Counted from the stretch's first letter, positions 20,091 through 58,452 are shown. The stretch is DNA of 64,000 nucleotides from an uncultured Chloroflexia bacterium (GCA_963837425.1 CAWINH010000002.1:129500-193499), one strand, 5' to 3'. The notes: generated by a model not told the origin, from the letters alone. Program-made: numbers and translations.

Positions 20091-20236
20091 CTGCTCAACC
20101 GCGCTTGCAGGGAGCCTTATCCGGGTGGAATGCGCAGATCGCCCCCGACGTGTCGGCCGCCCACGCTCAACCGGCGCCGTCCTCCCGCGCTCGACGGCGC
20201 GCTGAGCTGGATAAGGTGCAGGGCATGAGCGGTTGG
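20091..20236. repeat. MITE-like element family B, about 150 bp.
   Basis: Terminal inverted repeats tcaaccgcgctt ... atgagcggttg, and internal inverted repeat gagccttatccgggtgga / gagctggataaggtgc. Confidence 0.65.
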
Positions 20237-20407
20237 GGATTGAACGGCCGCTTTGGCTCCCTGGGTACTCAACCGAGCCTCCCAGGAGCGCAATCCAGGA
20301 GCGCAATTCCCGCTGAGGCCGGCGTCCGCGGGGAGCACTACCACCACGCCCGCTCGGGGGCGACCGATAGGCGGGGGCGCGGCGCGCACCGTAAGATCGC
20401 GGACCGG

Positions 20408-21133
20408 TTACGTGCCGGTGATGAGGCGCTCGCGGTTGAAGAGCGGGCTGACGAGGCGCCAGCCGAGGACGTCGACGACGAAGAGCACCACGCCAATCGT
20501 GTCCAGGAGACCGCGCGTGGGATGGATCACGTCGAACGCGAGCAGGGTGGTGAGGATCGCGAGTGGCAGGCTCGCGAGCAGGCTGAGCTGCTGGGCGACG
20601 CGGGCGTCGCTCATTCGCGTCGAGATGGCCACCGCAATCCAGACCGATGCCGCCGCCAGGAGAGGCGTGAGGATCAGCTGGGCCAGCAGGTCATCCGGGC
20701 GAAGGAGCGCGGAGGCCAGCGCGGGCTCGGTGAGCGCCTCCAGGATCCCCAGGAAGGCCCCGAAGACGAGGTAGGCGATCACGAGCGACGGGAGGAGTGC
20801 GGCGAGTCCCTTGCCGAGGAGGAACTCCCGCTCGCGGATTGGCGTCGTGAGCACCGGCTCAAGGCTGCCCTGCTGTCGCTCACCGGCCACCGAGTACGCG
20901 GCGAGCACCGCCGGAGTGAGGACCGGGACGGCGAGCATGTAGAGAAGCACGTGCCGGTTGCTCAGCTCGGCCGCGGTCGAGGCCGGGATCGAGAGCAGGA
21001 CGATGACCGGCTGGATGAGGAAGATGAGCGGGAAGATCGCGGTCGCCACCAGGACCGACCGGTTGCGCCGATACTCCCGCAGCTCCTTGCGCATCACGGC
21101 GCCGATGCGCCGCGCGCTGAATCGGCGATTCAT
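20408..21133 (-). CDS. ABC-2 type transporter permease.
   Basis: Six TM helices. Start taken at MNRRFSARRIGAVMRKELREY. Overlaps the upstream ATPase gene by 4 nt. Confidence 0.7.
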   Translation of the reverse strand: MNRRFSARRIGAVMRKELREYRRNRSVLVATAIFPLIFLIQPVIVLLSIPASTAAELSNRHVLLYMLAVPVLTPAVLAAYSVAGERQQGSLEPVLTTPIREREFLLGKGLAALLPSLVIAYLVFGAFLGILEALTEPALASALLRPDDLLAQLILTPLLAAASVWIAVAISTRMSDARVAQQLSLLASLPLAILTTLLAFDVIHPTRGLLDTIGVVLFVVDVLGWRLVSPLFNRERLITGT

Positions 21134-22113
21134 GCCCCGGCGACCTCTCGGTCCTCGTCCACGAGCTGGAGATACACGTCCTCCAGGGAGTGGCGCGTCT
21201 CGCTGATCGAGAGGACGTCCGCGTTCGCGGCCACCAGGGCGCGGGTCAGAGCCGGGGCCGCGAGGGTTGGGTCCGAGACGGTGACGAGGTAGCCCGCGGC
21301 ACCGTCCTGCCGCCACCCGTCGACCGCGGGGACCTGCGCGAAGAGGCCAGCGGGATCGGCGAGCGGTTGCGCGGTGCGGACCGCGAGGCCACGGGTGAAG
21401 AGGCGGTCGCGCAGCTCATCGGGCCGGCCGATCATCTGCAGCCTCGTGTTCAGGATCGCGACCCGGTCGCAGAGGCGCTCCGCCTCCTCGAGCCGATGGG
21501 TGGTCAGGAAGATCGTCACGCCCCGCTCTCGGAGCCCCTCGATCAGCTCATGGACGTCGCGTCCCGCCGCCGGGTCGAGGCCGGCGGTCGGCTCGTCCAG
21601 GAAGAGGAGCTCCGGGTCGGGGAGCAGGGCGCGCGCCAGGGCCACTCGCTGGCGGAGCCCCTTCGAGAGGCGGCTGCAGGGATCGGTCGCCCGGTCCGCC
21701 AGGTTGACCGCGGCCAGGGCTTCTTCCACCCGCCGGCGGGGGTCGGGAGTCTCGTACAGATCCGCGAAGCATTCGAGGTTCTCGCGGACGGTGAGGCGCA
21801 GGTAGAGGCCGGGCGCCTCGGGCATGATCGCGATCCGGCGCCGGATCGCGACCCCGTTCTCCGGGGTGAGAGGGATCCCCAGGACGCTCGCCGAGCCCGA
21901 GGTCGGGGAGATGAGCGTGCCGAGGGTCCGGACCGTCGTCGTCTTTCCGGCGCCGTTCGGGCCAAGGAACCCGAACACCTCGCCTTGGGCGACCTCGAAC
22001 GAGACGTCGTCCACCGCGACCCGGGCGCCCGGGCCCTCGCCAAATCGCTTCGAGAGATGGTCGACCGCGATGGCCGGAGCCGCGCCGGATTGCTCGCTCA
22101 TGACGCCGGCCAT
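21130..22113 (-). CDS. ABC transporter ATP-binding protein.
   Basis: Walker A GPNGAGKTT, signature LSKGLRQR, Walker B LLFLDEPT. Confidence 0.85.
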   Translation of the reverse strand: MAGVMSEQSGAAPAIAVDHLSKRFGEGPGARVAVDDVSFEVAQGEVFGFLGPNGAGKTTTVRTLGTLISPTSGSASVLGIPLTPENGVAIRRRIAIMPEAPGLYLRLTVRENLECFADLYETPDPRRRVEEALAAVNLADRATDPCSRLSKGLRQRVALARALLPDPELLFLDEPTAGLDPAAGRDVHELIEGLRERGVTIFLTTHRLEEAERLCDRVAILNTRLQMIGRPDELRDRLFTRGLAVRTAQPLADPAGLFAQVPAVDGWRQDGAAGYLVTVSDPTLAAPALTRALVAANADVLSISETRHSLEDVYLQLVDEDREVAGA

Positions 22114-22148
22114 TGTCCACCGATTGGCGGCGGGTATGCTGTCGCCGC

Positions 22149-22778
22149 ATGCGGCCGATCGTCGTCGTCTCCGCGTTCGTGGTGGTTGCCTTCGCCGTGG
22201 TCGCTGTCGCCGACCTGGGGGCGGGGAGCTGGGCGAAGGTCGTGGACGGCTCGTACGGGTTCGAGCCCGTGACCAGTGACCTCGCGCTGCTCTCCGCGCA
22301 GCCCGACTGCGAATCGCCGGGCTCGGCCACCTACCCCTGCGTCCGCCAGTTCGCCTTTGCGCCGGACGCGACGCTCACGGAGTGGGTCTCGGTCCGCAAC
22401 GACGGCCCGCTCGGGGTGACGCTGGAGGGCGTCCCGGACGATTGGCTCGGCGGGTTCGTCGAGTCGATGCTCAGCCGGCCGGTCGCCGCACTGGATGGAG
22501 GCGATCCAGCCGTGGCGATGGCGGCCGGGAGCCTGGAAGGGCCCGCGTTCACCGCCGTTGCGCTGGACCCCGGGGCGGAACGGCTCATTGGCCTCGAGTT
22601 CCGGACGACCGGCGACGTCGCATTCGCCTGCCAGCATTGGATGGAGGGCAGCGCGCTCGGCTGGGACGCCGTGCCGATCGCGTGGCACTGGCTCGCGTTC
22701 CGGCACGAGGTGGAGTTCTCCTTTGTCGCCCCCGTCGACTTCATGGCGCCAACCGCCGCGGACTGCTCGGCATCGTGA
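22149..22778 (+). CDS. Hypothetical membrane-anchored protein.
   Basis: N-terminal TM helix (IVVVSAFVVVAFAVVAV). No motif recognised. Confidence 0.4.
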   Translation: MRPIVVVSAFVVVAFAVVAVADLGAGSWAKVVDGSYGFEPVTSDLALLSAQPDCESPGSATYPCVRQFAFAPDATLTEWVSVRNDGPLGVTLEGVPDDWLGGFVESMLSRPVAALDGGDPAVAMAAGSLEGPAFTAVALDPGAERLIGLEFRTTGDVAFACQHWMEGSALGWDAVPIAWHWLAFRHEVEFSFVAPVDFMAPTAADCSAS

Positions 22779-23467
22779 GGCGCGGTCGCGCGGAGCGGAC
22801 GCCCGATGCTCGCGATCGTGACCCGACCCTTCGCACGACGCTGATCGCGGCGGCTCCGCTGGGAGCGGCGATCGGTGTCTTCGGGGTGATCTTCGGCGCG
22901 TCGGCGGGTGCCGAGTACGGCCCGGCGCTGACGATCGGGATGTCCCTGATCGTCTTCTCGGGCACCGTCCAGTTCGCCGTCGTGGGCTTGCTGGCGAGTG
23001 GCGCCGGGGCGGCGGCGGTCCTCGTGACCGCGCTCGCCCTGAACACGCGCAACCTGGTGCTGGGGGCGGCCATCCGGCACCGTCTGACGGGGTCGCGGCT
23101 GCGGCGCGCAGGCCTGGCCTGGCTTCTCGTGGACGAGAGCTTTGGCCTGGCGATCGCCTCCAAGGGGCGCGCGGCCACCGTTCTGTTCACCACCGGGTCC
23201 CTCTTCTACCTGACCTGGCAGCTGGGGACGATCCTGGGTGTGGTCGGGGCGCGGGTGGTGGCGCTCGAGGGGCTGGCCGGCGCCGTGTTCCCGGTGCTGT
23301 TCATAGGCCTGGCGGCGCTGACGGTCCGCGGTCGGGCGGGCGTGGTCCGGGCGCTGGTGGCCGGAGGGTTGGTGGCCAGCGTCGTCGTGGCCGTGCCGGC
23401 GCTCCATGCATGGGCGCCGATCATCGCCGCGCTGCTCGTTGCGCTGCCCGGGGGTCGGACCCGATGA
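22775..23467 (+). CDS. azlC: AzlC-family branched-chain amino acid exporter.
   Basis: Polytopic membrane protein. The arrangement with the downstream azlD is typical. A GTG start at 22775 is inferred. Confidence 0.65.
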   Translation: MRRGRAERTPDARDRDPTLRTTLIAAAPLGAAIGVFGVIFGASAGAEYGPALTIGMSLIVFSGTVQFAVVGLLASGAGAAAVLVTALALNTRNLVLGAAIRHRLTGSRLRRAGLAWLLVDESFGLAIASKGRAATVLFTTGSLFYLTWQLGTILGVVGARVVALEGLAGAVFPVLFIGLAALTVRGRAGVVRALVAGGLVASVVVAVPALHAWAPIIAALLVALPGGRTR

Positions 23468-23754
23468 GCTGGGGCCTGATCGTTCTCCTGGGCGTTCTCA
23501 CCTACGCCAGCCGCGCGCTGGCGGTCGTCTTCCTGCCGCACCTGCCAATGCGGGCGCGGGCCGCGCTCGATCGCATGCCCCCGGCGCTCTTCGCCGGCCT
23601 GGCCGCGCAGGCGCTCGTGGGGCCCGGCGCGAGCGTGGCGGATCCCCGGGTGCTGGCCGCGGCCGCCGGGGCGCTGATCGTGACGCCCATGCGGTCGCTT
23701 GCGATCTGCCTGGCTGCCGGGCTCGCGACATATCTGGTCGCGGGGCTGCTCTGA
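23464..23754 (+). CDS. azlD: AzlD-family branched-chain amino acid transport protein.
   Basis: About 97 aa with 3 TM helices. Overlaps azlC by 4 nt. Confidence 0.65.
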
Positions 23755-23809
23755 GCAGGGCACAGCGGTTTGGCCGCAGCCATATCATGCATCGGCTGGG
23801 TATCGGGCC

Positions 23810-24220
23810 ATGGGCGCCGGAAAAGAGGAGGAGCGGGTGCTGGGATCGAGTCACGCGTATTCGGGCTTCTCGGTGGACGACATCGGCAGGGCGAAGGCCT
23901 TCTATGCCGATGCCCTGGGGCTGGAGGTGACCGAGGCCCACGGGATGCTGACCCTGCACCTCGCCGGCGGCGGGACGGTCATTCTGTACCCGAAGGAGAA
24001 CCATCAGCCGGCGACGTTCACTGTCCTGAACTTCCCGGTGCCCGATATCGACGCGGCGGTGGACGGGCTGGCGGCGGCGGGCGTCACATTCGAGCGCTAC
24101 GAGGGGCTCGACCAGGACGAACGCGGGATCGCCCGGCCACCGAAGCCGGAGTACGGCCCACCCATCGCCTGGTTCACCGATCCGGCGGGCAACATCTGCT
24201 CGGTCCTCCAGGACACCTGA
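23810..24220 (+). CDS. VOC-family (glyoxalase/bleomycin-resistance fold) protein.
   Basis: [21 protein letters not shown]...FTDPAGN. Confidence 0.7.
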
Positions 24221-24227
24221 CCGGGGT

Positions 24228-24305
24228 ACGTCGCGCCCGGGATGTCGCGCCCGGGATGTCGCGCCCGGGATGTCGCGCCCGGGATGTCGCGCCCGGGATG
24301 TCGCG
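24228..24305. repeat. Tandem 15-bp microsatellite (gatgtcgcgcccggg), about 5 copies.
   Basis: Read directly from the sequence. It abuts the MITE-B copy at 24308. Confidence 0.8.
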
Positions 24306-24307
24306 CC

Positions 24308-24457
24308 GACTCTTCAACCGCGCTTCTGAGGAGCCTAATCCCGGTGGAGGCGCGAGCGGCACTCGGGAACGATGGGTCGCCACGCTCACGCGGGGGCGTG
24401 GGCACCCCTTGGGAGCCGCGTCGAGCTGGATAAGGTGCCGGGGATGAGCGGTTGAGC
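24308..24457. repeat. MITE-like element family B.
   Basis: Terminal inverted repeats gactcttcaaccgcgctt ... gatgagcggttgag. Internal gagcctaatcccggtgga / gagctggataaggtgc. Confidence 0.65.
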
Positions 24458-24547
24458 AGTCAGGCTGCGCGACGGCCTGCGCGACGCCTGCGCGAGGGGA
24501 TCTGCGCGAGGGGCGCCGCGAGAGCGCTGCACGAGAGGGCGCCGCGA

Positions 24548-27997: not shown

Positions 27998-28148
27998 GCG
28001 TGCGCGCAGCGCACGCATCGGCCATCGGGAGGGCTCCTGGAACTGCCCGAGATGACGCCCCTGGTGCACATTCAGGCCTTCCGGGGCCCGATTCGGGTGC
28101 TTCGGTGTCCGATGTGCACACCTGGCGCACATCGGGACGCGCGGGGAG
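27998..28148. repeat. MITE-like element family A.
   Basis: gtgcgcgcagcgcacgcatcgg ... ttcggtgtccgatgtgcacacctggcgcacatcgg. Confidence 0.7.
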
Positions 28149-30119: not shown

Positions 30120-30265
30120 GAGTGGGTTCCTCGATATGTGTCCGCTCGGCGCTTCGTGGCGCCGGTCGCGTGGTTCTTCCACACTCATGGACGAGATCTG
30201 CGCGCGAATGGATACCAGGCCACCTCGAGGAGTGCGCGATGGAGGTCGCTGGCTGAAGCCTCGGG

Positions 30266-30352
30266 GTGTGCGCCCAGCGAGCGCATCGGCCATTCGGGAG
30301 CCGATTCCGATGCTTCGGTGTCCGATGTGCACACCCCGCGCACACCGCAGGG
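30266..30352. repeat. MITE-like element family A, short copy.
   Basis: gtgtgcgcccagcgagcgcatcgg ... ttcggtgtccgatgtgcacaccccgcgcac. Confidence 0.65.
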
Positions 30353-32175: not shown

Positions 32176-32312
32176 GCGTGCGCCGGGCGCACGCATCGGC
32201 GATCGGGAGGGCTCCGAACTGCCCAGGTGACGCCCCCGGTGCACATTCAGGCCTTTCCTGGGCCGTTTCCGAGGCTTCGGTGTCCGATGTGCACGCCTCG
32301 CGCACATCGGGC
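32176..32312. repeat. MITE-like element family A.
   Basis: gcgtgcgccgggcgcacgcatcgg ... ttcggtgtccgatgtgcacgcctcgcgcacatcgg. Confidence 0.7.
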
Positions 32313-38695: not shown

Positions 38696-38737
38696 GCGCA
38701 GGACTACCTGGCATCACTGCTCGATCCAGGATCCAAG

Positions 38738-38965
38738 TCCCGCTGAGCGGGACGTTTCGCGCAGGAAGAGGCGCTCAGGCGCCGTTTGTCCCGCTCACCG
38801 GGACGTTTCGCGCAGGAGGGCGCTCAGGCGCCGTTTGTCCCGCTCACCGGGACGTTTCGCGCAGGAAGAGGCGCTCAGGCGTAGTTTGTCCCGCTCACCG
38901 GGACGTTTCGCGCGGGAGGCGAGCCTCAGGCGCCGTTTGTCCCGCTGGGTGGTGCGTCCCACAGG
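38738..38965. repeat. Tandem array of four palindromic units of about 51 bp (REP-like).
   Basis: The unit gggacgtttcgcgcaggaagaggcgctcaggcgccgtttgtcccgctcacc is present four times. Junction hairpins are gtcccgctcaccgggac. The units are conserved with no variable spacers. Confidence 0.8.
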
Positions 38966-39034
38966 CGCGGGATGCCAGGCGCGGGAGCCAGCGCCCAGGC
39001 CTGCTTGACGTCCGCCTTATCACGATATATCGTG

Positions 39035-41754: not shown

Positions 41755-42170
41755 GACCCGCCGACTCCTCAACCGCTCTGCAGCGGCGCGGTATCCGGCG
41801 CGGGCGGGCGTCACGACCCTCTGACTCCTCAACCGCTCGTCAGCGGCGCGGTATCCGGCTCGGGTGGCCGTCACGACCCTCTGACTCCTCAACCGCTCTT
41901 CTCCGGCACGCTATCCAGATCGGCGGCAGGTCGAGCCGGTCGCGGGTGATCACTGCACGCTCAGCTCGGCGGGCGATGCGTTGGGGAACTCCCCCGGGAG
42001 CTGGATAACGCTCCTCCAGAGAACGGATGACAAGTCGGCACGTCCGTAGGCGGGTGCTGCGGCCGATGCGACTTACGCGGCCGATGCGACTTACCGGGCC
42101 GATGCGACCGCGGCGCTGGTGCGCCGCCGCCCTAATGCTTATCCCGTTGCTTCAGCAAAGCGCAAGGCGT
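41755..42170. repeat. Composite repeat: about 2.5 tandem MITE-B 5-prime units (gactcctcaaccgctc...gtcacgaccct) plus a shared 3-prime segment. It is a near-identical copy of the repeat at 48515-48845.
   Basis: About 190 bp match the second copy with only two mismatches, and the flanking ccgatgcgac repeats are similar. Confidence 0.8.
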
Positions 42171-42479
42171 AGTGGTCGCCGATCTCCCGAAACCCGACCC
42201 CTCGCTTCGAGCACTTATCGCCGTGGGATCGCCTGCCCATTTGTGTCCGTGACGACGCGCGTGCCGAGGTCGGCGTCGAGGGAAACAGTCAGATCCCGAA
42301 GGGAGAGTTCGGCCGTGCCAGGCAGGGGAATCGGGCATGGCAGCGTCTCGATCTTGACCCGGACCTCGGCGGGCGTTTCGGCGACATTCGTGACTCGCGT
42401 CCAACTACACGGGGCTACGGCGACCTTCACCGCGATGGTGCGCTGGCTGACCGCCGCGTAGGAGTCCAGTTAGGGACCA

Positions 42480-43100
42480 CCACGGTCGAGTTCTGGGCGG
42501 CGAGGAGGATCGCCAGGACGACAAGGACGACCGCGAGCCAGACCTTCAGCGGAATGCGGCGCGGCCGTTTCGATTCCATTCGCGTCCCCTCTCTCGAAGT
42601 CATCGTGGTGCCGGCCGGATCGGAAACTGCCGCAGGTTGGTCGCCCCGCGAAGAACGGCCGGGGGCACGAGCGTCGCCGGTCTCGAGGCCCAGTAGCGTC
42701 GGAAAGGCGGCCTGCCGCCTCCGCGCCGGTTGTGCCGGAAGACGAACTCGTCGAGATAGGCTTGGAGTTGGGCGCGGCTTACGCCCTGATGGGTCCCGAG
42801 GAGCCACTGCTTGAGGTTCCCCCATCGCGCGGTCCGCGAGCGGGACGATATGGGGCATCCCCTTGCGAATGTTCCCCTGGACTGTGGGCTGATGGACGTA
42901 GCCGAGCGACGGCAGCGCCACGAAGCCCGACATCTTGTCAGCGTACATCGTGCTTCCGGCTCGATGTACCGTCGGGCGAAGTCGTTCATCGTGACTTGGC
43001 GGAGGTCGGGGATCACCTCCATCCGGGCCCTCTCCGTGCCACGCCCGCGACGCTCGACTACGACGATCACGAGTGCCGGCGCGGAGAGCGCGCGGCCGCA
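42480..43100 (-). pseudogene. IS1595-family (ISXO2-like) transposase C-terminal remnant, frameshifted.
   Basis: THQGVSRAQLQAYLDEFVFRHNRR is the conserved C-terminal motif. The upstream part is in another frame. There is no N-terminal DDE region and no terminal inverted repeats. Confidence 0.45.
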
Positions 43101-43134
43101 CGAGCTTTGATTTGGAGCCTGGGGAGCGCCACGC

Positions 43135-43986
43135 CTATCCGGTTGGCGTTGGCGTTGTGCTCGATTCCGGCGTTGGCGTTGGCGTTGGCGTTGCGCTCGA
43201 TTCCGGCGTCGGGGTTGGGGTTGGCGTTGGCGTTGCGCTCGCTTCCGGCGTCGGGGTTGGCGTTGGCGTTGGCGTTGCGCTCGATTCCGGCGTTGGCGTC
43301 GTGGTCCCGGTTGCCACAGGATCGGGAATAGGACTCGGGCTTGAGGCCGGGCTTGGAGACGTGCTCGGGCCTAATTGAGGGTCCGGGTTGGCCGTGGGAC
43401 TCGGCTCGGGGTGTGGCGTTGGGCTCGGGTCCTGCGGACGGAGTGGATTGGGCACCGTCAATGCGGCGGTGGCGCCGTCAACTGCATCACTCATGGATGC
43501 GGTCTCACAGCCGATGAACGTGTCATGCGCAGTGCCGTCGCATGCATCGGAGCCGGCTCCGCCATCGAGGAGATCCTTGCCGTTGCCGCCGGAGAGCGTG
43601 TCGTCACCTTCTCCGCCCAGCAGGACGTCCTTGCCGTTGCCGCCGGAGAGCGTGTCGTCACCTTCTCCGCCGACGAGGCAGTCCTTGCCGTTGCCGCCGG
43701 AGAGCGTGTCGTTGCCGCCGAGGCCGAAGATGAGCGCGCCGCCGTTGGCGCCGCTGATCGTGTCATCGCCTGGCGTCCCGACAATGATGTCGCTGAAGGT
43801 CATGCCCGCGCATTCGGTGGGCGTGGAGGGAGGCGGCGCGGCGACGTGGAGGGTGAACACCTGCAGGGGGGACGCGCTGATGACCAATGAGGCTGCCGAC
43901 GCCGTGACTGCGACGATCAGCGTGGCAAGGCCGAGCACGCTCGCCACAAACCAACGCAGGGTGCGACGATCCAAGCCGCGCCTCAC
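43135..43986 (-). CDS. Secreted RTX-type calcium-binding repeat protein with a Thr/Pro-rich tail.
   Basis: Four GGNGKDxLxGGEGDDTLSG nonapeptide-type repeats and a (TPTP)n C-terminus. Confidence 0.7.
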   Translation of the reverse strand: MRRGLDRRTLRWFVASVLGLATLIVAVTASAASLVISASPLQVFTLHVAAPPPSTPTECAGMTFSDIIVGTPGDDTISGANGGALIFGLGGNDTLSGGNGKDCLVGGEGDDTLSGGNGKDVLLGGEGDDTLSGGNGKDLLDGGAGSDACDGTAHDTFIGCETASMSDAVDGATAALTVPNPLRPQDPSPTPHPEPSPTANPDPQLGPSTSPSPASSPSPIPDPVATGTTTPTPESSATPTPTPTPTPEASATPTPTPTPTPESSATPTPTPTPESSTTPTPTG

Positions 43987-44747
43987 TGCTTCGCGACCTC
44001 ACCTCGCTGGCCGGTTGAGGCATGCCGCGCGGCAATGCCGTTGGGCTTGCGTCCCGCGCGTGACCTGCCCGCCTTGGGCGGTCCCCCACCAAGCACCCAG
44101 ATCCCGGCGATGCCGCCGAGGAGCAACGCAAGGGCCATGGGTTGTCGGAGGATCAGGAGCAGGCGACCGCTGCCCGGCAGTTCCACCCAGCTCCTCCCGA
44201 GGATGCCCGCCTGGCCCGGGCGCCACGGATCGGGGCCGCTGTTGTTATCGCCTTGCATGATGAATCCGTTTTGTGCGTCACCGCCGACGATGCGGTGGAT
44301 CACCACGGCTCCCGCCGACGGCTGCCCCTCAGGAACGCGATATGCAACCACGTCGCCTACCTGGTAACTATCCAATTGTCGAACGACGACGAGGTCCCCG
44401 GTGTGGAGGTTCGGCTCCATGCTGACGCCGGAGACGACGAGATACGACGCTGGACCGCCGAGCGCCATCGGTCGCAGGAAAAAGAACCAGGCGACGAGGA
44501 GCGAGGCCCCGGAGATGAGGAGTGCCGTCCGCAATGTCCGTCCGAGGCCGGATTGACGTCCGACGGCCACGCGCGGTGCGAGAACGCGTTGCCGGCCCAG
44601 CGCGCTCGACATCATTCGACGTGTGGCTTCGCTCGTCAGACGCCCGTCGCCCGGTCGTCCGCTGTCGAAGTCGAGACCGCACATTCGGCAGAAGCGGAAC
44701 GAACCGATGCGGGCCTCACCGCAGTCTCTACAGAACAAGTCCGGCAT
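43983..44747 (-). CDS. Signal peptidase I, SipW-like (S26 family), with an N-terminal zinc-ribbon.
   Basis: SGVSMEPNLHTGDLVVV peptidase motif, and CRDCGE...CRMCG. Overlaps the downstream RTX gene by 4 nt. Confidence 0.7.
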   Translation of the reverse strand: MPDLFCRDCGEARIGSFRFCRMCGLDFDSGRPGDGRLTSEATRRMMSSALGRQRVLAPRVAVGRQSGLGRTLRTALLISGASLLVAWFFFLRPMALGGPASYLVVSGVSMEPNLHTGDLVVVRQLDSYQVGDVVAYRVPEGQPSAGAVVIHRIVGGDAQNGFIMQGDNNSGPDPWRPGQAGILGRSWVELPGSGRLLLILRQPMALALLLGGIAGIWVLGGGPPKAGRSRAGRKPNGIAARHASTGQRGEVAKQ

Positions 44748-44843
44748 GTCGCGCCTTGGGTGCGTCGGGATGACCCGTTGGCAAAACGGGTGGGACCCGC
44801 GGCCCTGTCCGGACGCGAACAGAGCCACGGGCATAGTCGGGGA

Positions 44844-45404
44844 CTAGACGCCGATCACGATACGGACGCCCGCGATGATCTCGCCCGGCACTCCACATGG
44901 GTAGGTGGGGCTCGTGAGCTGGTCATCTGCCGGATGCACGTAGCCAAGCGCGACCTTGGCTGTCGGCGAGCCGATCGGGTAGGGGGTCACGCTGATGGGC
45001 GTGCCGGGGGCTCCGCAATCGACCGAGGGCGAATGGTTAGCGCCCACGATGTGGCCCGCAGCATTCAGTGCATAGAAGTAGAGGTTCTGGCCATCGCATG
45101 TCGGGTCGATGTTGGAGACCTGGGCCGACGTCACCGTCCCGGTGTAGTCGGCGTTCCAGACTACCGTGAGCGGAGTGGTCTGGCAGTTGGTCAGTGACAC
45201 GGCGCCGACCTGGATGGTGCCCGGGTCATCGATCGGCAGGGTGGACGCCGACGCCAAGACGGCGCCGAAGACCATCGTGCCCACCACAGTCGCCAAGAAG
45301 AGCCTTCTCACGTTGTTCCTCCTTTGGGCCAGGGCGCCGGGCTTGATGCCGGGGTGAGCGCATGAGGACATCTGGGCCAGCAGCCTCCCCTCGATCCATA
45401 ACTT
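44844..45404 (-). CDS. Exported protein with a SipW-cognate-type signal peptide (TasA/camelysin-like class).
   Basis: RRLFLATVVGTMVFGAVLASASTL, then a beta-rich domain. It lies immediately upstream of the sipW-like gene. The start codon is uncertain. Confidence 0.5.
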   Translation of the reverse strand, partial: KLWIEGRLLAQMSSCAHPGIKPGALAQRRNNVRRLFLATVVGTMVFGAVLASASTLPIDDPGTIQVGAVSLTNCQTTPLTVVWNADYTGTVTSAQVSNIDPTCDGQNLYFYALNAAGHIVGANHSPSVDCGAPGTPISVTPYPIGSPTAKVALGYVHPADDQLTSPTYPCGVPGEIIAGVRIVIGV

Positions 45405-45615
45405 CACGTTTGCGATGACGAGTTCGTGCTCTCCCCAGCTGACCAACCTAGGGGTCGCTCCCGCGCGGGCCATCCGGGATTCCACGGAATCAGCTACGGG
45501 TTCGGGCCTCAGTACGCGTGTTGTGAGATCTGGCGGGCGCACGGAGACGGGAACCAGTGCCGTGATCCGTACTTCCCCTGATGCCGCTCCTGGCGGCTCC
45601 CCCTACCCTCGCCGC

Positions 45616-46080
45616 ATGGAGCGCTTGCACCCTCGCGACAGCGGGGCCGATGCCCAGGTTTCTGGGGACGTGCCGGCAGGCCCGGCGGCCGATGAGGCGG
45701 CGGCGCGGGAGGCCCGCGAGCGCTATCGCAACGGACCGATGCCCGCTGTCCGAGCCGATCCGGAGATCGCAGCACTGCTGCAGCCCGGCGAGGCGGTTGT
45801 CGCGGTGCACCCGTCGGTCGTTCTCGAGCGCCGGACGCCGAAGCCGGAGTCCGCCGCTCCGCGCGGCCCTGCGGGCGAGCTCCACGTGACCTCGCGGCGT
45901 CTGCTGCTGATCGGCCGGGATCGCCTCTCTATCGACCTCGAGGAGATTCTCGAGGTGGGCCTGTCGGGAGAATGGCTTCTCCTGGTCCTGCGCGAGGGTC
46001 GCGGTGTCGCTCTGCGCGCGGCGCAGCCGCGTCTGCTCAGGGTCGAGATCGCCGCGGCGCGGGCTGCCGCCAGGGCCTGA
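45616..46080 (+). CDS. Hypothetical protein.
   Basis: ORF starting MERLHPRDSG. No motif recognised. Confidence 0.35.
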   Translation: MERLHPRDSGADAQVSGDVPAGPAADEAAAREARERYRNGPMPAVRADPEIAALLQPGEAVVAVHPSVVLERRTPKPESAAPRGPAGELHVTSRRLLLIGRDRLSIDLEEILEVGLSGEWLLLVLREGRGVALRAAQPRLLRVEIAAARAAARA

Positions 46081-46086
46081 TCGCGG

Positions 46087-46746
46087 TCAGCCGGGCTCCC
46101 GGTAGCGTCCCGCCGCCTCTGCCCGGTTCCGAGCGTCAAGCTTGTGCAGGATGCTGCTCACGTGCGTCTCCACCGTACGGGGCGAGATCGTGAGCGATGC
46201 GGAGATCTGACGGTCCGTGAGACCTTCCGCCAACAGGCGCAGGACCTGCATCTCGCGCATGGTCAAGCGTGCCAGCGCAGGGTCGTCCGTCGTGGCTGTA
46301 CGTCGCGAGGTCTCGACCAGGCGGTGGACAACGCGCGCGGCGATCCCACGAGGCATGGCCAGCTCACCGGCGGACGCGCTTCGCACCGCACGCTGCAGCG
46401 CATCGGGCGAGAGGTCCTTCGTCAGGTACCCGCTCGCTCCGTAGCGAAGCGCTTCGATGACATGACGATCCGCCCTCGAGACGGTGAGCATGACGATCCG
46501 CGCATCCGGAAGCCGGGGTGCCAGCTCATGCACGAGGCTCACGCCGTCCATCCCCGGTAGGTCAATATCGATGAGGAGCAGGTCGGGTCGTACCACCGGC
46601 GCGAGGGAAAGGGCCTCCTCCGCGGTTCCGACCTCGGCGACCACCTCGAGGTCCACTGCGGAAAGGGCTTGACGGACCGCTGCGCGCACCAGGGCGTGGT
46701 CGTCGACGACCATGACACGGATGTAACCGGGGGCGACGGCGCGCAT
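46087..46746 (-). CDS. Two-component response regulator, NarL/LuxR family.
   Basis: Receiver domain (VMVVDDHALVR...DLLLIDIDLPGMDG) plus LuxR HTH (LTMREMQVLRLLAEGLTDRQIS). Confidence 0.85.
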   Translation of the reverse strand: MRAVAPGYIRVMVVDDHALVRAAVRQALSAVDLEVVAEVGTAEEALSLAPVVRPDLLLIDIDLPGMDGVSLVHELAPRLPDARIVMLTVSRADRHVIEALRYGASGYLTKDLSPDALQRAVRSASAGELAMPRGIAARVVHRLVETSRRTATTDDPALARLTMREMQVLRLLAEGLTDRQISASLTISPRTVETHVSSILHKLDARNRAEAAGRYREPG

Positions 46747-46748
46747 GG

Positions 46749-48233
46749 CTACCCCGACGCCCCTGGCGCCGGCGCCGCATGTGGCACCGGGAGAAGGACG
46801 CGGATTCGCGTGCCGTCATGCGGGTGCGAATCTATGCGGAGCTCTGCGCCGATGATCGCCGCCCGCTCCCTCATGCTGGAGAGGCCGTAGGCATCCTCAC
46901 CGAGCTGTTCGGGATCGAACCCGCGCCCGTTGTCTCCCACCGTGAGCTCGAGATGGCCATTCTCGATGGCGGCATGGACCCGGACGAAGGTCGCGTCCGC
47001 GTGTCGGCGAACGTTACTCAGTGCCTCCTGGGCAATCCGCACGAGTTCGGCTTCTGCCCGAGCAGTAAGGCCCGAGGCACCGTTGGGGCAATCGATCTCG
47101 GCTCGCAGGCCGAATCGATCGGCGAAGTCATCGACATACCGAGCGATCACGTCCCAGAACGGGCCTGCCGGCTGGCCGGCGATCCGCAGCGCCGTGACGG
47201 CCTGCTGCGCCTCTGCCAACCCGGCATCGATGGCGTCCCCCAGCTCGCCGACCAGCGCAGCGGCATCCGGCCCGAACCCCGCAAGGCCCGCCAGTCGGCC
47301 GGCCTTCAGCTTCGCCAGCCAGAGATTCTGCGCCAGACCATCGTGCAGTTCGCGGGCGAGATGGGCACGCTCCTCCAGGGTGGCCCGCTCGGCATCGAGC
47401 GCTCGGAGGCGTCTAAGGTCGAGATTGGCGGTCCGCAGGCCTGCGAGTGCCACGCCGACCTCGGTCTCGACGCCGACGAAGAGGCAGAGGTCGAACACGA
47501 GCCAGAGGAAGTTGGCGGTGGTCACCAGCCCGGTCTCGGTGTGTGGGGAGACGGCCACGTAGGCCTGGGCGAAGGCACCGAAGACGAGGCCCAGCGCCAG
47601 CCAGGCATGGCCCAGCGACCCGTATCGGCGGTAGAGACGGCGCGAGAGGGCCGCGGCCCACAGGAGCAGAGCCGCCACGGAAACCTGCAGGGCGGCGCCG
47701 AGGAGCGTCGAGCTCTGCACAGAGCCAGGGCCTGCCTTCGAGGCGAGCTGGGGGAGGGATCCGGCGTGTGCCGCCACGTACGCGATCACAACCAGGGCCA
47801 CGGCTGGCGCGACCACGACCAGCCATGGGCGCCCCGGACGGAGACCCCGCAGTGAGGCGAAGCCGCCGACCACGAGGAGGATCGCGGCCATGAGTCGCGA
47901 CGCCGTGAAGACGTAGAGGTTGGCTTGCCCGAGCTCGCCCAGCGGCAAGCCGGCCGACGCGTCGAGGCCGCTCAGGATCGAGGCCACGTATTGGCCATCG
48001 CTCGTGGCCAGGACGAGGAACGCTGCCGCCTCGAAGAGGGCGAGTGGTGCGGCCAGCTGGCGGTAACGGACCCAGCCCAGGACCGCAACCGAGATGGCGA
48101 CGAGCGTCGCGAGGGTCTCGAGAACAAGGTCAAGACCCGGGGCGGAGATGCGGATGTTGACGCCAGGAGCGACGAGACCCGCCGCAAGCCCCGCAGACAA
48201 GGCAGCGGCCGCCACGACCATGACGGCATCCAC
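46749..48233 (-). CDS. Sensor histidine kinase (HisKA_3, NarX/LiaS-like) with a polytopic N-terminus.
   Basis: H-box ARELHDGLAQNL, HATPase C-terminus, and a 3-nt gap to the response regulator gene. Confidence 0.8.
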   Translation of the reverse strand: MDAVMVVAAAALSAGLAAGLVAPGVNIRISAPGLDLVLETLATLVAISVAVLGWVRYRQLAAPLALFEAAAFLVLATSDGQYVASILSGLDASAGLPLGELGQANLYVFTASRLMAAILLVVGGFASLRGLRPGRPWLVVVAPAVALVVIAYVAAHAGSLPQLASKAGPGSVQSSTLLGAALQVSVAALLLWAAALSRRLYRRYGSLGHAWLALGLVFGAFAQAYVAVSPHTETGLVTTANFLWLVFDLCLFVGVETEVGVALAGLRTANLDLRRLRALDAERATLEERAHLARELHDGLAQNLWLAKLKAGRLAGLAGFGPDAAALVGELGDAIDAGLAEAQQAVTALRIAGQPAGPFWDVIARYVDDFADRFGLRAEIDCPNGASGLTARAEAELVRIAQEALSNVRRHADATFVRVHAAIENGHLELTVGDNGRGFDPEQLGEDAYGLSSMRERAAIIGAELRIDSHPHDGTRIRVLLPVPHAAPAPGASG

Positions 48234-48514
48234 CGATGTCGACCGGTTGGCAACCAGGGAACGCTCTCGCGGAATCTCCGAGATCGGATGCCCTCCCCAT
48301 GCATCGATCCGACGAATGGCTTATCGCTCGGATCGAGATGCGTTGTCAATAGGCAACACCCGCTCGGCCCTGCAAGACATCGATTCTCGGCCCAGGCATA
48401 GGGCGCCGACATACGCGCGATGAAGGCCGCGGTCCGCCCTGAATGCCCAGAATCGCCCGGAGACTATCGGGGTAGCAAGGTCCGCTGCCGGTGTCCTCCG
48501 TATGCCGTTGCCCT

Positions 48515-48845
48515 CCGTCGACTCCTCAACCGCTCGTCAGCGGCGCGGTATCCGGCGCGGGTGGGCGTCACGACCCTCTGACTCCTCAACCGCTCTTCTC
48601 CGGCACGCTATCCAGATCGGCGGCAGGTCGAGCCGGTCGCGGGTGATCACTGCACGCTCAGCTCGGCGGGCGATGCGTTGGGGAACTACCCCGGGAGCTG
48701 GATAACGCTCCTCCAGAGAGCGGATGACAAGTCGGCACGTCCGAACACGGGCCACACGGCCGATGTGCCGATGCGGGTCACACGGCCGATGCGGCCGATG
48801 CGACCGATGCGCTGGCGCGCCGCCGCCCTACGTCCACATGAGCCC
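48515..48845. repeat. Composite repeat, the second copy of 41755-42170, in direct orientation.
   Basis: See 41755-42170. Here there are about 1.5 tandem 5-prime units. Confidence 0.8.
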
Positions 48846-51952: not shown

Positions 51953-51961
51953 GGTTCCCCG

Positions 51962-52522: not shown

Positions 52523-52542
52523 GCCGACTGCTGCGCGGCGCG

Positions 52543-53439: not shown

Positions 53440-53442
53440 GCC

Positions 53443-54725: not shown

Positions 54726-56258
54726 ATGCACCTGAGCCTCACCCGCCGGCGATTCGGCGTGCCCACCGCCGTCCTGGCCGTTGACGTCGTCCTCCTCGTT
54801 TTCGCAGGCGGCTGCCAGCTGGCGGACGCCGGGATCGGACCCGGCCTCCTCTTTGTCCTGCTGATCGTGGGGCTCGTGGTTGGACTCAGCGTGGTCGGGA
54901 TGCTGATCGTCAACCACGAGCGGACGAACGCGGTGGGCTGGATCTTCATGGCGAGCTCGATTGGCATGGCCGTTACCACGGCCTCCTACACCTGGGTCGC
55001 ACTGAGCCAGGATCGGCACGGGCTGACCCTGCCGGGCACCGTCTTCGCGGCGTGGCTCGACAGCTGGATCGCCATCCCCAGCCTGATCCTGATGGTCATC
55101 TTCGTTCCGCTCCTCTTTCCCGACGGTCACCTGCCGTCGCCCCGATGGCGATGGGTCGCTGCGTTTGCAGGGGTGGGAATCGTGGCCACCAGCGTGGGCT
55201 CGGCGATCGTTCCGGGCCCGATGAGCGGGACCGATATCGAGAACCCGATCGGGATTGCGTTGGGACACCCGCTCATCGACGTGGTGAGCGTCATCGATCC
55301 ACTGAGCGGCTTGATCGTGTTCGCGCTCGCGATCGTGGCGGTCGTGACCCGCTATCGGCACGGTTCCCCCACTGAGCGGCTGCAGCTGCGCTGGTTCGCG
55401 TTCCCGGCGACGGTCGCCATCGTCTGCCTGGGACTGTCCTTTATCTTCGAGACCGGCGTGGTGGGCGACGTGGCCTGGATCGTGGGGCTCGTGGCGATCA
55501 CGAGCGTGCCGGTGGCGATCGGCATTGCCGTCCTTCGCTACCGGCTGTACGACATCGACGTCCTGCTGAACCGGACCGCCGTGTATGCCACCGTCAGCGC
55601 CCTGCTGGCGGCGGCCTTCGTGGTAGGCAACATCGGCCTCCAGTACGTCGTCGAGTCGTTCACGCACCAGCGCTCGGAGCTGCTCTCCGGTGCGTTGGGG
55701 GTGGGCGTGGGCCTCCTGTTCGTCCCGATGCGACGCTGGATACGGCCGGTGATCGATCGCCTCCTGCCCGGCCGCGCGGTGCTCGCCCTGCTCTTCACCG
55801 ACATCGTCGGCTCCACGGAGCGCATCGTGGACATTGGCGACGAGCGCTGGCGCGCGCTCCTCGGGCAGTATCTCGCCGCGGTACGAGGGGAGCTCGCCAC
55901 TCACCGGGGGCATGAGGTGAACACCGCGGGTGACGCATTCTTCGCCACCTTCCACCGGCCGCTCGACGCACTCCACGCGGCATGGGGCATCCGTGCCTCC
56001 GTGCAGCAGCTGGGTCTCGAGACGCGAACCGGCCTCCACCTCGGCGAGGTCGAGATGCGCGGTGAGCAGGTGAGCGGCCTGGCGGTGCACACGGCCGCGC
56101 GGGTGATGGCCGCGGCCGGCGATGGCGAGGTGTTCGTCTCCGATGCGATGCGCGATGCGATCCACGCGGGCGAGGTCTCGCTGCGGGACCGCGGACGCCA
56201 CGAGCTCAAGGGCGTCCCAGGCGACTGGCGCCTCTACGCGGTCGAGGCCGCGGGCTGA
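54726..56258 (+). CDS. Membrane-anchored class III adenylate/guanylate cyclase.
   Basis: 6-7 N-terminal TM helices, then LLFTDIVGSTER...NTAGDAFFATF...LHLGEVE. Confidence 0.8.
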   Translation: MHLSLTRRRFGVPTAVLAVDVVLLVFAGGCQLADAGIGPGLLFVLLIVGLVVGLSVVGMLIVNHERTNAVGWIFMASSIGMAVTTASYTWVALSQDRHGLTLPGTVFAAWLDSWIAIPSLILMVIFVPLLFPDGHLPSPRWRWVAAFAGVGIVATSVGSAIVPGPMSGTDIENPIGIALGHPLIDVVSVIDPLSGLIVFALAIVAVVTRYRHGSPTERLQLRWFAFPATVAIVCLGLSFIFETGVVGDVAWIVGLVAITSVPVAIGIAVLRYRLYDIDVLLNRTAVYATVSALLAAAFVVGNIGLQYVVESFTHQRSELLSGALGVGVGLLFVPMRRWIRPVIDRLLPGRAVLALLFTDIVGSTERIVDIGDERWRALLGQYLAAVRGELATHRGHEVNTAGDAFFATFHRPLDALHAAWGIRASVQQLGLETRTGLHLGEVEMRGEQVSGLAVHTAARVMAAAGDGEVFVSDAMRDAIHAGEVSLRDRGRHELKGVPGDWRLYAVEAAG

Positions 56259-56268
56259 AGGGAGCCGA

Positions 56269-57549
56269 TCACTGGCGGAGCGCGGCTCTCAGGTCCAGAG
56301 CTTCGCGAGCGAGGGTGGCCGCCGCCTGCCTGCTCACCCACCGCGGGCTGAGGCCGCGCACCTGGTTCGCGAATGCCTGGAGCTGCGCCATCGCGGCCCG
56401 CGTGTGCCCGCCCGCCAGGAAGCGTTCGACGCGTGACAGACGAGCGGTCAGGAGGCGCGCCTTGGAAGGGGCGACGTCGCCGTTCGCGATGCAGCCGGCG
56501 AGCAGGGCCTTGAGGGCGTCCATGCTCGGGACACTGGCCGGGGGCTCCCTGACGGTGACGGCCAGCTGGCAGGTCGCCTCCTGGGCCGGCGTTGCATTGG
56601 TCAAGGCGGTGACCGTGACGTCGTACGAGCCGGCCGGGGTCGTCGCGCCGACGCGGACCTGGGCGGTCGCCGCCGCGCCGATCGTGGATGCCGGGGAGAC
56701 CACGCCGAGCGTCACCGACCCGGGGTCGGGCGCCGCCGTAAGGCCGAAGCTGACGACGAGTCCATCCGGGTCGGCGGCGCTCACCGTGGTCAGGACCGCG
56801 GTGCCGGCGTCCGTGCTGACCGGCGCTCCGCAATCCGCTGTGGGCGGCGCGTCATAGGGCGACGCCGCGGTCGGGGTGTTCGTTGGCCCGAGCTGGTAGT
56901 CCGCCAGCACCCAGTCGGCGGCCGTGTCCGTATCGACGCCGTCGCTCGCCCGGCGCGCGCCGGCCGGCAGGAACCCATCATCGAGGCCGGGAAGCGGTGC
57001 GCCGAAGTACCAGATGTCGGTTGGGCCGCCGTCGCTGAAGGCGACGGCGTCGAGCACCGTCTCCGATCCGGTCACCGGTGAACCGGGCGCCGGTGCGCTG
57101 GCCGTCTTGACCAGCGCGACCGTCTGACTGCCATTTTCGAACCAGTCATTGCCGATGCTCACGTCCGGCGTCACGCCGTAATGCGTTCCGAGTCCGACCG
57201 GGTTGCCCACGAGGTAGAAGCCATTCCCGCCGAGATGAGCTCCCGCGTCGAAGTCGAGGCGTTGGTCTACCGTCCCCGGCCCGGTGCTCGAATCGCCCTC
57301 GACGACGAGCAGGCTCAGGCCGGCGAGCGAGGCGCCCGGCGTGCCGTACAGCTCGGCGTACTCGGTGTCGTCGGGCGAGCCCATGTGGCTGATCAGCACC
57401 TCGTTGAGGAGGACCGGATCACCGGTCGCGGCGCGCCCACGGGCCAGCGGAAGAAGGACGCCGACGATGAGCGCCACAGCCGCCCCCAGGGCGAGCGCGC
57501 GGGGCGAGATGGCCGGTCCGAAGCGAGCTGATGGCACCATGCGAGCCAA
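56269..57549 (-). CDS. Secreted lamin-tail-domain (LTD) protein.
   Basis: Signal anchor, then DPVLLNEVLISHMGSPDDTEYAELYG, which has the LTD pattern. Confidence 0.6.
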   Translation of the reverse strand: MARMVPSARFGPAISPRALALGAAVALIVGVLLPLARGRAATGDPVLLNEVLISHMGSPDDTEYAELYGTPGASLAGLSLLVVEGDSSTGPGTVDQRLDFDAGAHLGGNGFYLVGNPVGLGTHYGVTPDVSIGNDWFENGSQTVALVKTASAPAPGSPVTGSETVLDAVAFSDGGPTDIWYFGAPLPGLDDGFLPAGARRASDGVDTDTAADWVLADYQLGPTNTPTAASPYDAPPTADCGAPVSTDAGTAVLTTVSAADPDGLVVSFGLTAAPDPGSVTLGVVSPASTIGAAATAQVRVGATTPAGSYDVTVTALTNATPAQEATCQLAVTVREPPASVPSMDALKALLAGCIANGDVAPSKARLLTARLSRVERFLAGGHTRAAMAQLQAFANQVRGLSPRWVSRQAAATLAREALDLRAALRQ

Positions 57550-57670
57550 CGTACTGCGTCGCCCGCTGCGTGCCCAGCGAGAAACCCGTACCGATCAGGT
57601 GCGCTGGTGCACCTGACCAGTCGCACCCCGATTGCGGTACCTCCGGCGCCGGGCTGGCTAGACTCCCCCC

Positions 57671-58198
57671 GTGGAGCCGATGCTGCCGAGCGAGCCCGTG
57701 CAACCTCTGGAGCCGATGGTGCCGATGGTGCCGATGCGAGCGGTCCGGCCGCGCCGCCCGGCGGCTGTGACCGCGGCCGCGATTGCGCTCATCGTGCTCG
57801 GCGCGCTCATCGGCCTCGGCGGATTGCTGTTCACCCTGTTGGGCGCCCTGGTCGGCGCGGTTGGCGAGGTGCCGCCGGAGCTCAGCGACCAGCTGGGTTC
57901 GCTGTCCCTGAATGCCGTTGGCGGGCTCGCAATCGTGGTCGGCCTGGCACTCGCCGCCTTCGGCGCTGTGAGCGTTGCGAGCGGCATCGGAGCACTCGTG
58001 GGGCGCAGCTGGGCCCGGGTGGCCGGGATGATCGCCGCCCTGCTCGGGACGATCTTCAGCCTCACCGGGATCTTTCCGGTCTCCGACGGGGCTCTCGCCG
58101 GCGGGATCGTCTCACTGTTGCTGGTGGCGACCTACGCGTTCAGCGCATGGACCCTCATCACCTCGGCCGGCTGGTTCACGACGGCTGCGACCGGCTGA
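57671..58198 (+). CDS. Hypothetical membrane protein.
   Basis: Four TM helices. Confidence 0.45.
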   Translation: MEPMLPSEPVQPLEPMVPMVPMRAVRPRRPAAVTAAAIALIVLGALIGLGGLLFTLLGALVGAVGEVPPELSDQLGSLSLNAVGGLAIVVGLALAAFGAVSVASGIGALVGRSWARVAGMIAALLGTIFSLTGIFPVSDGALAGGIVSLLLVATYAFSAWTLITSAGWFTTAATG

Positions 58199-58242
58199 CG
58201 GTCCCCGCGGGTCGTGCGCCGAGCGTTTCGCCGGGTCCATCT

Positions 58243-58452
58243 GTCAACCGCGCCCCGGAGGAGCGTTATCCACCTCGCGACGTCATTCGAGCGCGCGGAG
58301 CCGCTGTTGGCGAGCGTGCGACGGTCACCCGCGGCCGGCGCCGCCCGCTCCCGGAGCGGATAGCGTGCCGACCATGCGCGGTTGAACAGTCGGCGGGCCG
58401 CTTCGCGAGCCTGGAGCGGATAGCGTGCCCACCATGCGCGGTTGATGAGTCA
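58243..58452. repeat. MITE-like element family B, with a duplicated 3-prime terminal inverted repeat.
   Basis: tcaaccgcgcc..ggagcgttatcc ... ggagcggatagcgtgccgaccatgcgcggttga, and the last 50 bp are repeated. Confidence 0.65.

Follow-up and report, generated by a model that had tools for sequence, protein, structure and literature searches.

Paired arms in a fixed register

The 64-kb stretch of DNA analysed here (CAWINH010000002.1:129500-193499; hereafter the window) is a Chloroflexota (Limnocylindria-like) genome segment of 70% G+C, whose intergenic regions carry a family of short non-coding repeats. Each unit, of ~154 bp, consists of two imperfect inverted arms of ~40 bp flanking an 86-nt spacer of fixed length and free sequence. 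An initial annotation of this DNA had proposed a dispersed family resembling miniature inverted-repeat transposable elements (MITEs) at five or more loci between 20091 and 58452, and the five it located are all present at roughly those positions in single-arm, two-arm and nhmmer searches. Each arm holds an outer box (GACTCCTCAACCGC) and an inner box (GGAGCGTTATCC), and read outward its consensus is GGATA-N-S-G-NN-CC, 8 nt, then GCGGTTGA-NN-AGTC. The 28-nt arm motif GGATWNSGNNCC-N8-GCGGTTGA is present at 15 places in the window, where chance predicts 0.04; the 16-base single-arm pattern GGATANNGNNCCNNNNNNNNGCGGTTGA, with up to two mismatches, likewise gave 15 matches against 0.04 expected from shuffles, and the two-arm pattern matched all five loci with 0.00 expected. 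Searching with an nhmmer arm profile gave these 15 arms again, with E between 1e-7 and 1e-12, and beyond them a single weak match at 20408-20446. The two arms of any copy are non-identical, one (A) reading GGATAA(C/G)GCTCC and the other (B) GGATA(G/A)(C/G)GTGCC, and the arms group into five inverted pairs and a degenerate sixth copy. With core boundaries taken from GACTCC to GGAGTC, cores measure 154 nt, or 214-274 nt with extra arms, and the copies lie as follows.

20089-20242, plus strand: c1, 154-nt core; A boxes 20095-20122, B boxes 20209-20236
20255-20450, plus strand: c1b, the degenerate sixth copy, immediately after c1 and in the same orientation
24308-24461, plus strand: c2, 154-nt core; A boxes 24314-24341, B boxes 24428-24455
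41763-42036, minus strand: c3, three B units starting at 41763, 41823 and 41883, then the interior and a degenerate A arm with boxes at 42003-42030
48520-48733, minus strand: c4, two B units starting at 48520 and 48580, then the interior and A boxes at 48700-48727
58238-58451, plus strand: c5, A boxes 58244-58271, B boxes 58358-58385 and 58418-58445

The copy ends proposed initially were about right, except that those given on the right of c3 and c4 (42010 and 48720) stop short of the degenerate outer box. The initial annotation had made its case depend on terminal repeats that align across copies, and they do, all 15 arms fitting one profile. The outer end of c1 is degenerate (GCGGTTGGGGATTG), and the A arm of c3 has ACGGATGA where GCGGTTGA is expected. 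The sixth copy, c1b, comprises an A-type arm at 20256-20300 (nhmmer E=1.4e-7) and a weak B-like partner at 20408-20446 (E=0.022) that overlaps the 3' end of an ABC2 gene; its arm offset is ~136 nt, compared with 114 nt elsewhere, and an internal 13-nt unit is duplicated at 20282-20307.

The geometry of the intact copies is exact. The arm-to-arm offset is 114 nt in all five window pairs (20095/20209, 24314/24428, 41889/42003, 48586/48700 and 58244/58358) and in an orthologous copy from a relative, L120, which makes six of six intact pairs. Extra arms follow at exact 60-nt steps at three loci (41769/41829/41889, 48526/48586 and 58358/58418). The orientation of c3 and c4 is opposite to that of c1, c2 and c5; the interiors of c3 and c4 are 56-57% identical to that of c5 when reverse-complemented and 31-33% identical in the same sense. 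Once every copy is read from A to B, the tandemly repeated arm is of B type at each such locus, so that the arm duplications described initially are real and do not fall on the 5' or the 3' arm at will. The additional B units in c3 and c4 read GGATACCGCGCC.

Between subgroups the interiors are nearly random (ungapped identity 0.22-0.57 in the better orientation of each pair, c3/c4 excepted), and a shared open reading frame (ORF) is therefore impossible. CACGCTC, or its complement GAGCGTG, stands at the exact midpoint of all copies (for example at 20168-20176, 24387-24395, 41962-41970 and 58321-58328); with respect to the A and B arms it points one way in c1/c2 and the other way in c3/c4/c5/L120. 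The outer boxes contain AAC...GTT (CTCAACC/GGTTGAG), triplets that are invariant except in the A arm of c3 and c4. Resemblances to three known motifs were dismissed as short chance matches: the lac operator (GAGCGGATA) and the inner end of Tn3-family inverted repeats (GCACGCTA), neither of them common to all copies, and the DnaA box (TTATCCAC), in c5 only.

Arm conservation and occurrence in relatives

When the A and B arms of a copy are paired, their outer portions form a helix of 8 bp that does not vary (TCAACCGC/GCGGTTGA); an internal loop of 8 nt separates it from an inner helix of 12 bp, in which an A.G mismatch and a G.U pair are both conserved. Over 25 arm pairs in six copies, 94% of cells were standard-paired. 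Interior complementarity, by comparison, amounted to 10-16 of 43 positions, the chance level at 70% G+C; the arms alone pair, and the initial description of the copies as hairpin-forming applies to the arms and not to what lies between them. Whole-element folding z-scores were modest (+0.06 to -3.6). The A-to-B strand folds better than its complement at all five loci, owing to the conserved G.U pairs.

Fourteen of the 25 arm pairs are invariant and only two show double changes, and covariation among the six copies was not significant, the observed score being reached in 45 of 500 shuffles. Invariant pairs together with covariation no better than in shuffles indicate sequence-specific recognition; these data point to arms conserved as sequence rather than merely as a helix, and to their recognition by a protein. 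Rfam gave no match at gathering thresholds anywhere in the window, and at E<=10 c5 gave none and c3 noise only. A structured RNA gene was rejected on the strength of this result and of the covariation test. No T run, as an intrinsic terminator would have, follows either end of any of the copies c1-c5.

Two relatives carry the element at orthologous sites. In L120, whose homologue of the protein encoded beside c5 (LLM-UbiA, a luciferase-like monooxygenase fused to a UbiA prenyltransferase) is 92% identical, the element occupies the orthologous c5 site with the 114-nt offset and one B arm, compared with two in the window. In L126, a decayed copy with another repeat family nested within it lies at the intergenic site between ABC2 and the gene for DAO, a protein of the FAD-dependent oxidoreductase family PF01266 that is 95% identical to the one encoded beside c4. 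No arm was found in ~82 kb from relatives at 80-87% identity (L121-L123, L127, L128, L130 and L131), where the density in the window predicts ~7 loci. The paired pattern had no match in metagenome contigs or in viral contigs; a stricter 20-base arm pattern had none in viral contigs and two in metagenome contigs, both chance matches in coding sequence of unrelated low-G+C contigs. Among plasmids, blastn in distant mode returned a 44-nt chance match with c5 only and none with c3. The one-arm pattern (16 specified bases) is uninformative on distribution, giving at least 119 single chance matches on genome contigs, none with a partner arm among the matches listed. Filled sites in the relatives at 92-95% identity and absence elsewhere indicate that the family is confined to a narrow lineage, within which copies are vertically inherited.

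The orthologous pair at c5 also gave a rate of change. Identity between window and L120 stands at 80% and 85% in the two arms and at 75.6% in the interior, compared with 78.7% for fourfold-degenerate positions in the gene next to it. The element thus evolves after insertion at roughly the pace of neutral sequence, a finding that speaks against a host function under strong selection. The alignment contains no indel across 166 nt of element, whereas the flanks show 20 gap columns over 177 nt. The absence of indels, and equal length despite interiors that cannot be aligned, indicate that length is constrained, at least in source copies.

Gene setting and the direct repeat around segment X

All five clear copies are intergenic, as described initially, and lie near stop codons; the degenerate c1b alone reaches the 3' end of a gene (ABC2). 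The A arm stands 37-90 nt beyond the stop codon of a co-directional upstream gene. This orientation is informative at c4 and c5 only, because c1 and c2 lie between convergent genes. At the left-hand locus, c1 begins 38 nt past the stop of a Phage_base_V/VgrG-like gene (17825-20050, plus strand); c2 sits between convergent genes of the glyoxalase family and for a DnaJ-domain protein, and c5 between a hypothetical gene (stop 58198) and the LLM-UbiA gene (start 58585). The flanking genes are ordinary and functionally unrelated (VgrG-like, ABC-2 transporters, glyoxalase, DnaJ-domain, histidine kinase with response regulator, DAO and LLM-UbiA), and the neighbouring proteins have their best named homologues in metagenome-assembled genomes (MAGs) of Candidatus Limnocylindria (Chloroflexota). 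The contig from which the window is taken measures 682 kb.

Short tandem repeats occur beside or inside several copies, at 24230-24307 (14 nt), 24465-24495 (11 nt), 42059-42108 (18 nt), 48748-48811 (9 nt) and 20282-20307 (13 nt). Two of them flank c2:

24230-24307, unstranded: microsatellite GTCGCGCCCGGGAT, a perfect 14-nt unit in 5.6 copies that abuts the A-arm end of c2

The period of this array had been put at 15 bp and is in fact 14 nt. The 11-nt repeat, in 2.7 copies, lies on the other side of c2. An independent Logan contig (L129), 99.8% identical to the window, ends at 24311; this assembly breaks at the 14-nt array. Orthologues of the c2 locus were sought through its DnaJ-domain protein, of which the closest homologue is merely 67% identical and lies on a 1.2-kb contig; the Logan contig encoding an identical protein is from the same strain.

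Beyond c5, a conserved 30-nt imperfect palindrome, GGAATCTGCTAGCATCCGGTAGCCGATTTC, stands at 58477-58506, ~80 nt upstream of the LLM-UbiA gene, and is a candidate operator or leader. It is present in all four relatives read, whether or not an element is adjacent (L120 4305-4335, L121 ~9929-9958, L122 ~2150-2180 and L123 ~9925-9955). Synteny with the relatives at 84-86% identity breaks at c5 (58198-58585), where they carry an ABC-transporter block of 3-4.5 kb. Relocation of this ABC operon to the c1 or c3 sites was considered and rejected, identity being merely 41-45%.

The two minus-strand copies stand apart from the others. Their cores are 99% identical, and the similarity begins exactly at the outer end of the B array and runs ~95 nt beyond the A arm to a CTA. 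This CTA serves the DAO gene as its stop codon beside c4; at c3, where the tail ends in the corresponding CTA, there is no DAO gene. The arrangement comprises the following features.

42037-42134, minus strand: c3 tail, a copy of the DAO 3' flank with an 18-nt GCGGCCGATGCGACTTAC repeat, ending in CTA at 42132-42134
42135-48519, unstranded: segment X, ~6.4 kb between c3 with its tail and c4 with its tail
42650-43100, minus strand: remnant of an IS1595-family transposase (PF12762, E=1.1e-19), ~600 nt from c3
48734-48830, minus strand: c4 tail, the DAO 3' flank with 9-nt CGGCCGATG repeats, ending at the DAO stop codon, 48828-48830

With their tails, c3 and c4 form a direct repeat of ~312 nt (element plus DAO 3' flank) around X. 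Besides the IS1595 remnant and ORFs without assignment, X includes genes for a protein with RTX repeats, a peptidase of S24/S26-like type, and a histidine kinase paired with its LuxR-type response regulator. L126 has no X; there, a single copy of the element lies between the adjoining DAO gene and ABC2/ABC_tran/PadR operon. The c3 tail is not a DAO pseudogene fragment, a reading that was rejected since no protein-level similarity extends beyond the stop codon. The extent of the repeat, and its position around a segment missing from L126, point to a segmental duplication or a product of recombination rather than transposition from one terminal inverted repeat (TIR) to the other; since the shared stretch takes in flank from outside the element, it cannot count as evidence for transposition. 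The arrangement could have arisen by insertion of X through recombination at the element, by a deletion in L126 between the repeats, or by collapse of the L126 assembly.

The IS1595 remnant, whose co-occurrence with the copies the initial annotation had proposed to check, is frameshifted and 5'-truncated, with no more of the DDE domain left than its C-terminal part. The arm profile found no arm-like sequence at or near its end, which makes IS1595 an improbable parent element. Among relatives on plasmids, which include intact ones, identity does not exceed 42%, too low for their ends to be compared meaningfully. Next to the remnant, 42-nt and 54-nt tandem repeats, rich in GTTGGC and in GCCGTTGCCGCC, occupy 43106-43771, within and immediately downstream of the gene with RTX-type calcium-binding repeats (43135-43986, minus strand), which adjoins the S24/S26-like peptidase gene.

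Origin of the family and other features of the window

The elements share terminal inverted repeats, are smaller than the ~600 bp usual as a limit for MITEs and hold no transposase ORF. They also resemble bacterial MITEs such as Correia/NEMIS, ERIC, RUP and Nezha in being non-coding, in their size (100-300 bp) and long imperfect TIRs, in their intergenic positions near gene ends, in being dispersed and in forming subfamilies with common TIRs and different interiors. Unlike those families, the present one has an unusually rigid length and one terminus that can be tandemly repeated, no target-site duplication, matching parent insertion sequence (IS) or insertion polymorphism was found for it here, and its only recent duplicate includes flank. 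The initial MITE interpretation stands as regards dispersed, non-coding and intergenic copies with long imperfect TIRs and variable arm number, and fell short on target-site duplications, an empty site and a matching transposase; that these are MITEs in the strict sense is unproven.

The closest published description is that of REPINs, doublets built from repetitive extragenic palindromic (REP) units that form hairpins and are moved by tyrosine transposases of the RAYT type (Bertels and Rainey 2011; PMC3116915, PMC3337134). These are inverted doublets with a modal spacing of 71 or 110 bp, unconserved spacers and evenly spaced tandem arrays (PMC3116915, PMC3337134), which insert without target duplication (PMC3116915, PMC3337134, PMC3733652), and single REPs are short, imperfectly palindromic sequences tagged with GTAG or CGTC (PMC3733652). 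The present elements are likewise extragenic inverted doublets with ~30-40 conserved nt at a modal distance (114 nt here), with an unconserved spacer, even tandem arrays, vertical inheritance at orthologous sites, a lineage-specific distribution and no target-site duplication. Judged by the fixed 114-nt spacing, unconserved spacer and evenly repeated arms, they resemble REPINs no less than MITEs of DDE transposases. They differ from REPINs in that their arms are neither palindromes nor tagged and are consistently A versus B, that the spacer is unfolded, that no RAYT gene lies within the 64 kb searched, and that the host belongs to the Chloroflexota, whereas described REPIN/RAYT systems are mainly proteobacterial. 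As palindromic tagged arms, a folding spacer and a RAYT are all unseen, we file the family as one that works like a MITE or REPIN rather than as belonging to either. E. coli bacterial interspersed mosaic elements (BIMEs) provide a further parallel in their modular, oriented repeat units, fixed-length linkers and positions at gene 3' ends; there is no sequence similarity to them, and the units described here are longer and non-palindromic. BIMEs have IHF, gyrase and Pol I as protein partners.

On balance, we think these elements are probably selfish repeats of the MITE/REPIN type, non-autonomous and non-coding, which form a family specific to their lineage. Such an origin fits the sequence-conserved boxes, the rigid geometry with a free spacer, the lineage-restricted burst, vertical inheritance, near-neutral decay and lack of coding capacity, and the near-neutral rate suits selfish DNA better than a host function. 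The family, with its geometry, arm conservation, distribution and near-neutral evolution, and the arrangement of c3, X and c4 are observed; mobility itself we infer, as we do the nature of the mobilising enzyme. The family would have multiplied over a short period once relatives with ~85% protein identity had split off, in the ancestor that this genome shares with its nearest relatives. The spread was probably driven in trans by a protein encoded outside the window, which would have recognised both boxes of each arm and needed both arms at a fixed distance. The lack of target-site duplications and the better pairing of one strand through conserved G.U pairs make a single-strand hairpin substrate, in the style of REPIN/RAYT or IS200/IS605, somewhat likelier than classical DDE cut-and-paste. 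Once inserted, copies would drift roughly neutrally and be inherited vertically, and dispersed copies may act as homology substrates for recombination, as with c3 and c4 bracketing the 6.4-kb block.

Several observations weigh against a selfish mobile family. Target-site duplications, which the initial annotation had raised, are lacking: there is no direct repeat of 2 nt or more at the GACTCC/GGAGTC boundaries of c1-c5 or in the L120 flanks. The copies are old, with ~20% neutral divergence, and such duplications may have eroded. No empty orthologous site was found, both comparable sites (in L120 and L126) being filled; more distant relatives provide no clean empty site because their gene order differs at the c5 and DAO sites. 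Pfam searches of ~59 window ORFs revealed no transposase or RAYT gene, the IS1595 remnant being the only trace. Missing duplications and a missing parent IS together speak against a classical MITE of DDE type. The comparison with REPs and REPINs is strained by arms that are not self-complementary and have no conserved GTAG or CGTC at a fixed position, and by a spacer that does not self-fold, so that the whole element forms no hairpin. The sole recent duplicate, c3/c4, carries non-element flank, the exact conservation of length is not explained by a hairpin model alone, and the sample comprises six loci and two orthologues.

Explanations in which the host gains were weighed against the same evidence. 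The elements might be stem-loops selected in the 3' untranslated region (UTR) and co-transcribed, whose arm helix protects mRNA from 3' exonucleases or pauses or terminates transcription, as proposed for REP, BIME and ERIC. This would account for the A arm, which in every case is turned towards the stop codon of a co-directional gene ending 37-90 nt upstream, and for the better folding of the sense (A-to-B) strand at all five loci through conserved G.U pairs, and it recalls REPs, most of which are located downstream of ORFs and in the gaps between convergent genes (PMC3733652). However, the two loci at which orientation is informative (c4 and c5) amount to p ~0.25, no T-tract follows the helix, the stems are conserved as sequence with no significant covariation, and a hairpin does not require a fixed loop length; with orthologues evolving about neutrally and relatives at 80-87% identity having no element beside the same genes, we consider a 3'-UTR function unlikely. 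Still less probable is a role as double-stranded binding modules for a host protein, either nucleoid-associated or a regulator, in which two helical turns would separate the boxes GGATA and GCGGTTGA of an arm, arms would be paired in inverted orientation at 114 bp and optional sites would follow every 60 bp. Invariant boxes, the fixed N8 within the arm and the exact 114- and 60-bp spacings are what such modules would show, as is the contrast between zero indels in 166 element nt and 20 gap columns in 177 flank nt, yet the sites stand at gene 3' ends and not at promoters, their neighbours have no common function, arm substitution is near neutral between orthologues, the motif is entirely absent from close relatives having the same genes, and no candidate binding protein was identified.

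The arrangement around X brings to mind recombination sites, of attC or other att type, at which a site-specific recombinase moves blocks of genes, with c3 and c4 as attL and attR of X. In common with integron attC sites, the elements have imperfect inverted repeats, outer boxes with AAC/GTT, a conserved unpaired base (here the A.G mismatch), a variable centre and a strand-asymmetric fold; moreover, direct repeats bracket a block that is missing from L126, and c5 too coincides with a difference in gene content from relatives. Against this, Pfam found no integrase or recombinase gene, tyrosine recombinases included, in X or the rest of the window, and the sites form no same-orientation cassette array: they are scattered in mixed orientation, 4-17 kb apart, among ordinary conserved chromosomal genes. 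At 142 nt or more they exceed attC sites, which are typically 57-141 bp long. Of the 7-mer consensus RYYYAAC/GTTRRRY, the GTTRRRY part is satisfied by some arms only, GTTGAAC and GTTGAGC fitting and GTTGAGG and GTTGATG not, and a duplication of ~312 nt with non-palindromic flank suits a segmental duplication or recombination between homologous stretches and does not suit crossover within a short core. We regard a site-specific recombination system as very improbable. Each of these three alternatives accounts for part of the evidence and is weakened by the near-neutral rate, by the gene-end positions or by the absence of a recombinase.

Returning to selfish repeats, a more far-reaching version of that explanation is conceivable, which we judge doubtful. 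The elements would here be the cargo-less partners of an unrecognised REPIN-like replicator in Chloroflexota (Limnocylindria), in which a single-copy transposase elsewhere in the genome acts on a single-stranded hairpin whose asymmetric arms keep a 114-nt register with 60-nt add-ons, and copies would serve as portable homology through which blocks such as X move into or out of the chromosome.

Short extragenic repeat families are well documented in Proteobacteria. To our knowledge none of this kind has been described in uncultured soil Chloroflexota, and a literature search returned none. The finding is real but ordinary, and is notable for its exact 114/60-nt register, its A/B asymmetry and its uncultured Chloroflexota host; current understanding is unchanged unless a new type of transposase or recombinase proves to be attached to the family. 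Its rigid geometry offers a handle for finding the mobilising enzyme, and the family can be used as a marker in strain- and lineage-level comparisons of Limnocylindria MAGs. It also flags breakpoints of assembly or synteny, both of the two comparable loci coinciding with gene-content differences between relatives.

Two further repeat families were seen in the window. One consists of tandem units of ~51 nt (GTCCCGC-N-GCGGGAC-GTTTCGCGC...) at 38730-38970 (plus strand) and, inverted, at 61258-61444, with arms 84-90% complementary. In L126 it recurs at 3270-3440 and 6334-6621, nested in the decayed element copy and also upstream of the PadR operon. Synteny with the relatives at 84-86% identity, broken at c5, breaks again at ~61250, just past an Rce1-like gene, at the 51-nt array. 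The other family is dispersed and has units of ~90 nt with CCGATGTGCAC and GGTGTCCGATG (13856-14192, 28047-28136, 30260-30349 and 32222-32311), in at least five copies, in both orientations and apparently between genes.

The left third of the window (1700-20050) is without the element. It encodes DndB-like, DUF6339, Imm5-like immunity, Zn-peptidase and BNR-repeat proteins, together with a 741-aa protein with a Phage_base_V (VgrG-type) domain, and looks like a variable defence or polymorphic-toxin neighbourhood. An internal duplication of 300 nt is found there, its two copies (8313-8612 and 14323-14622) being 73% identical.

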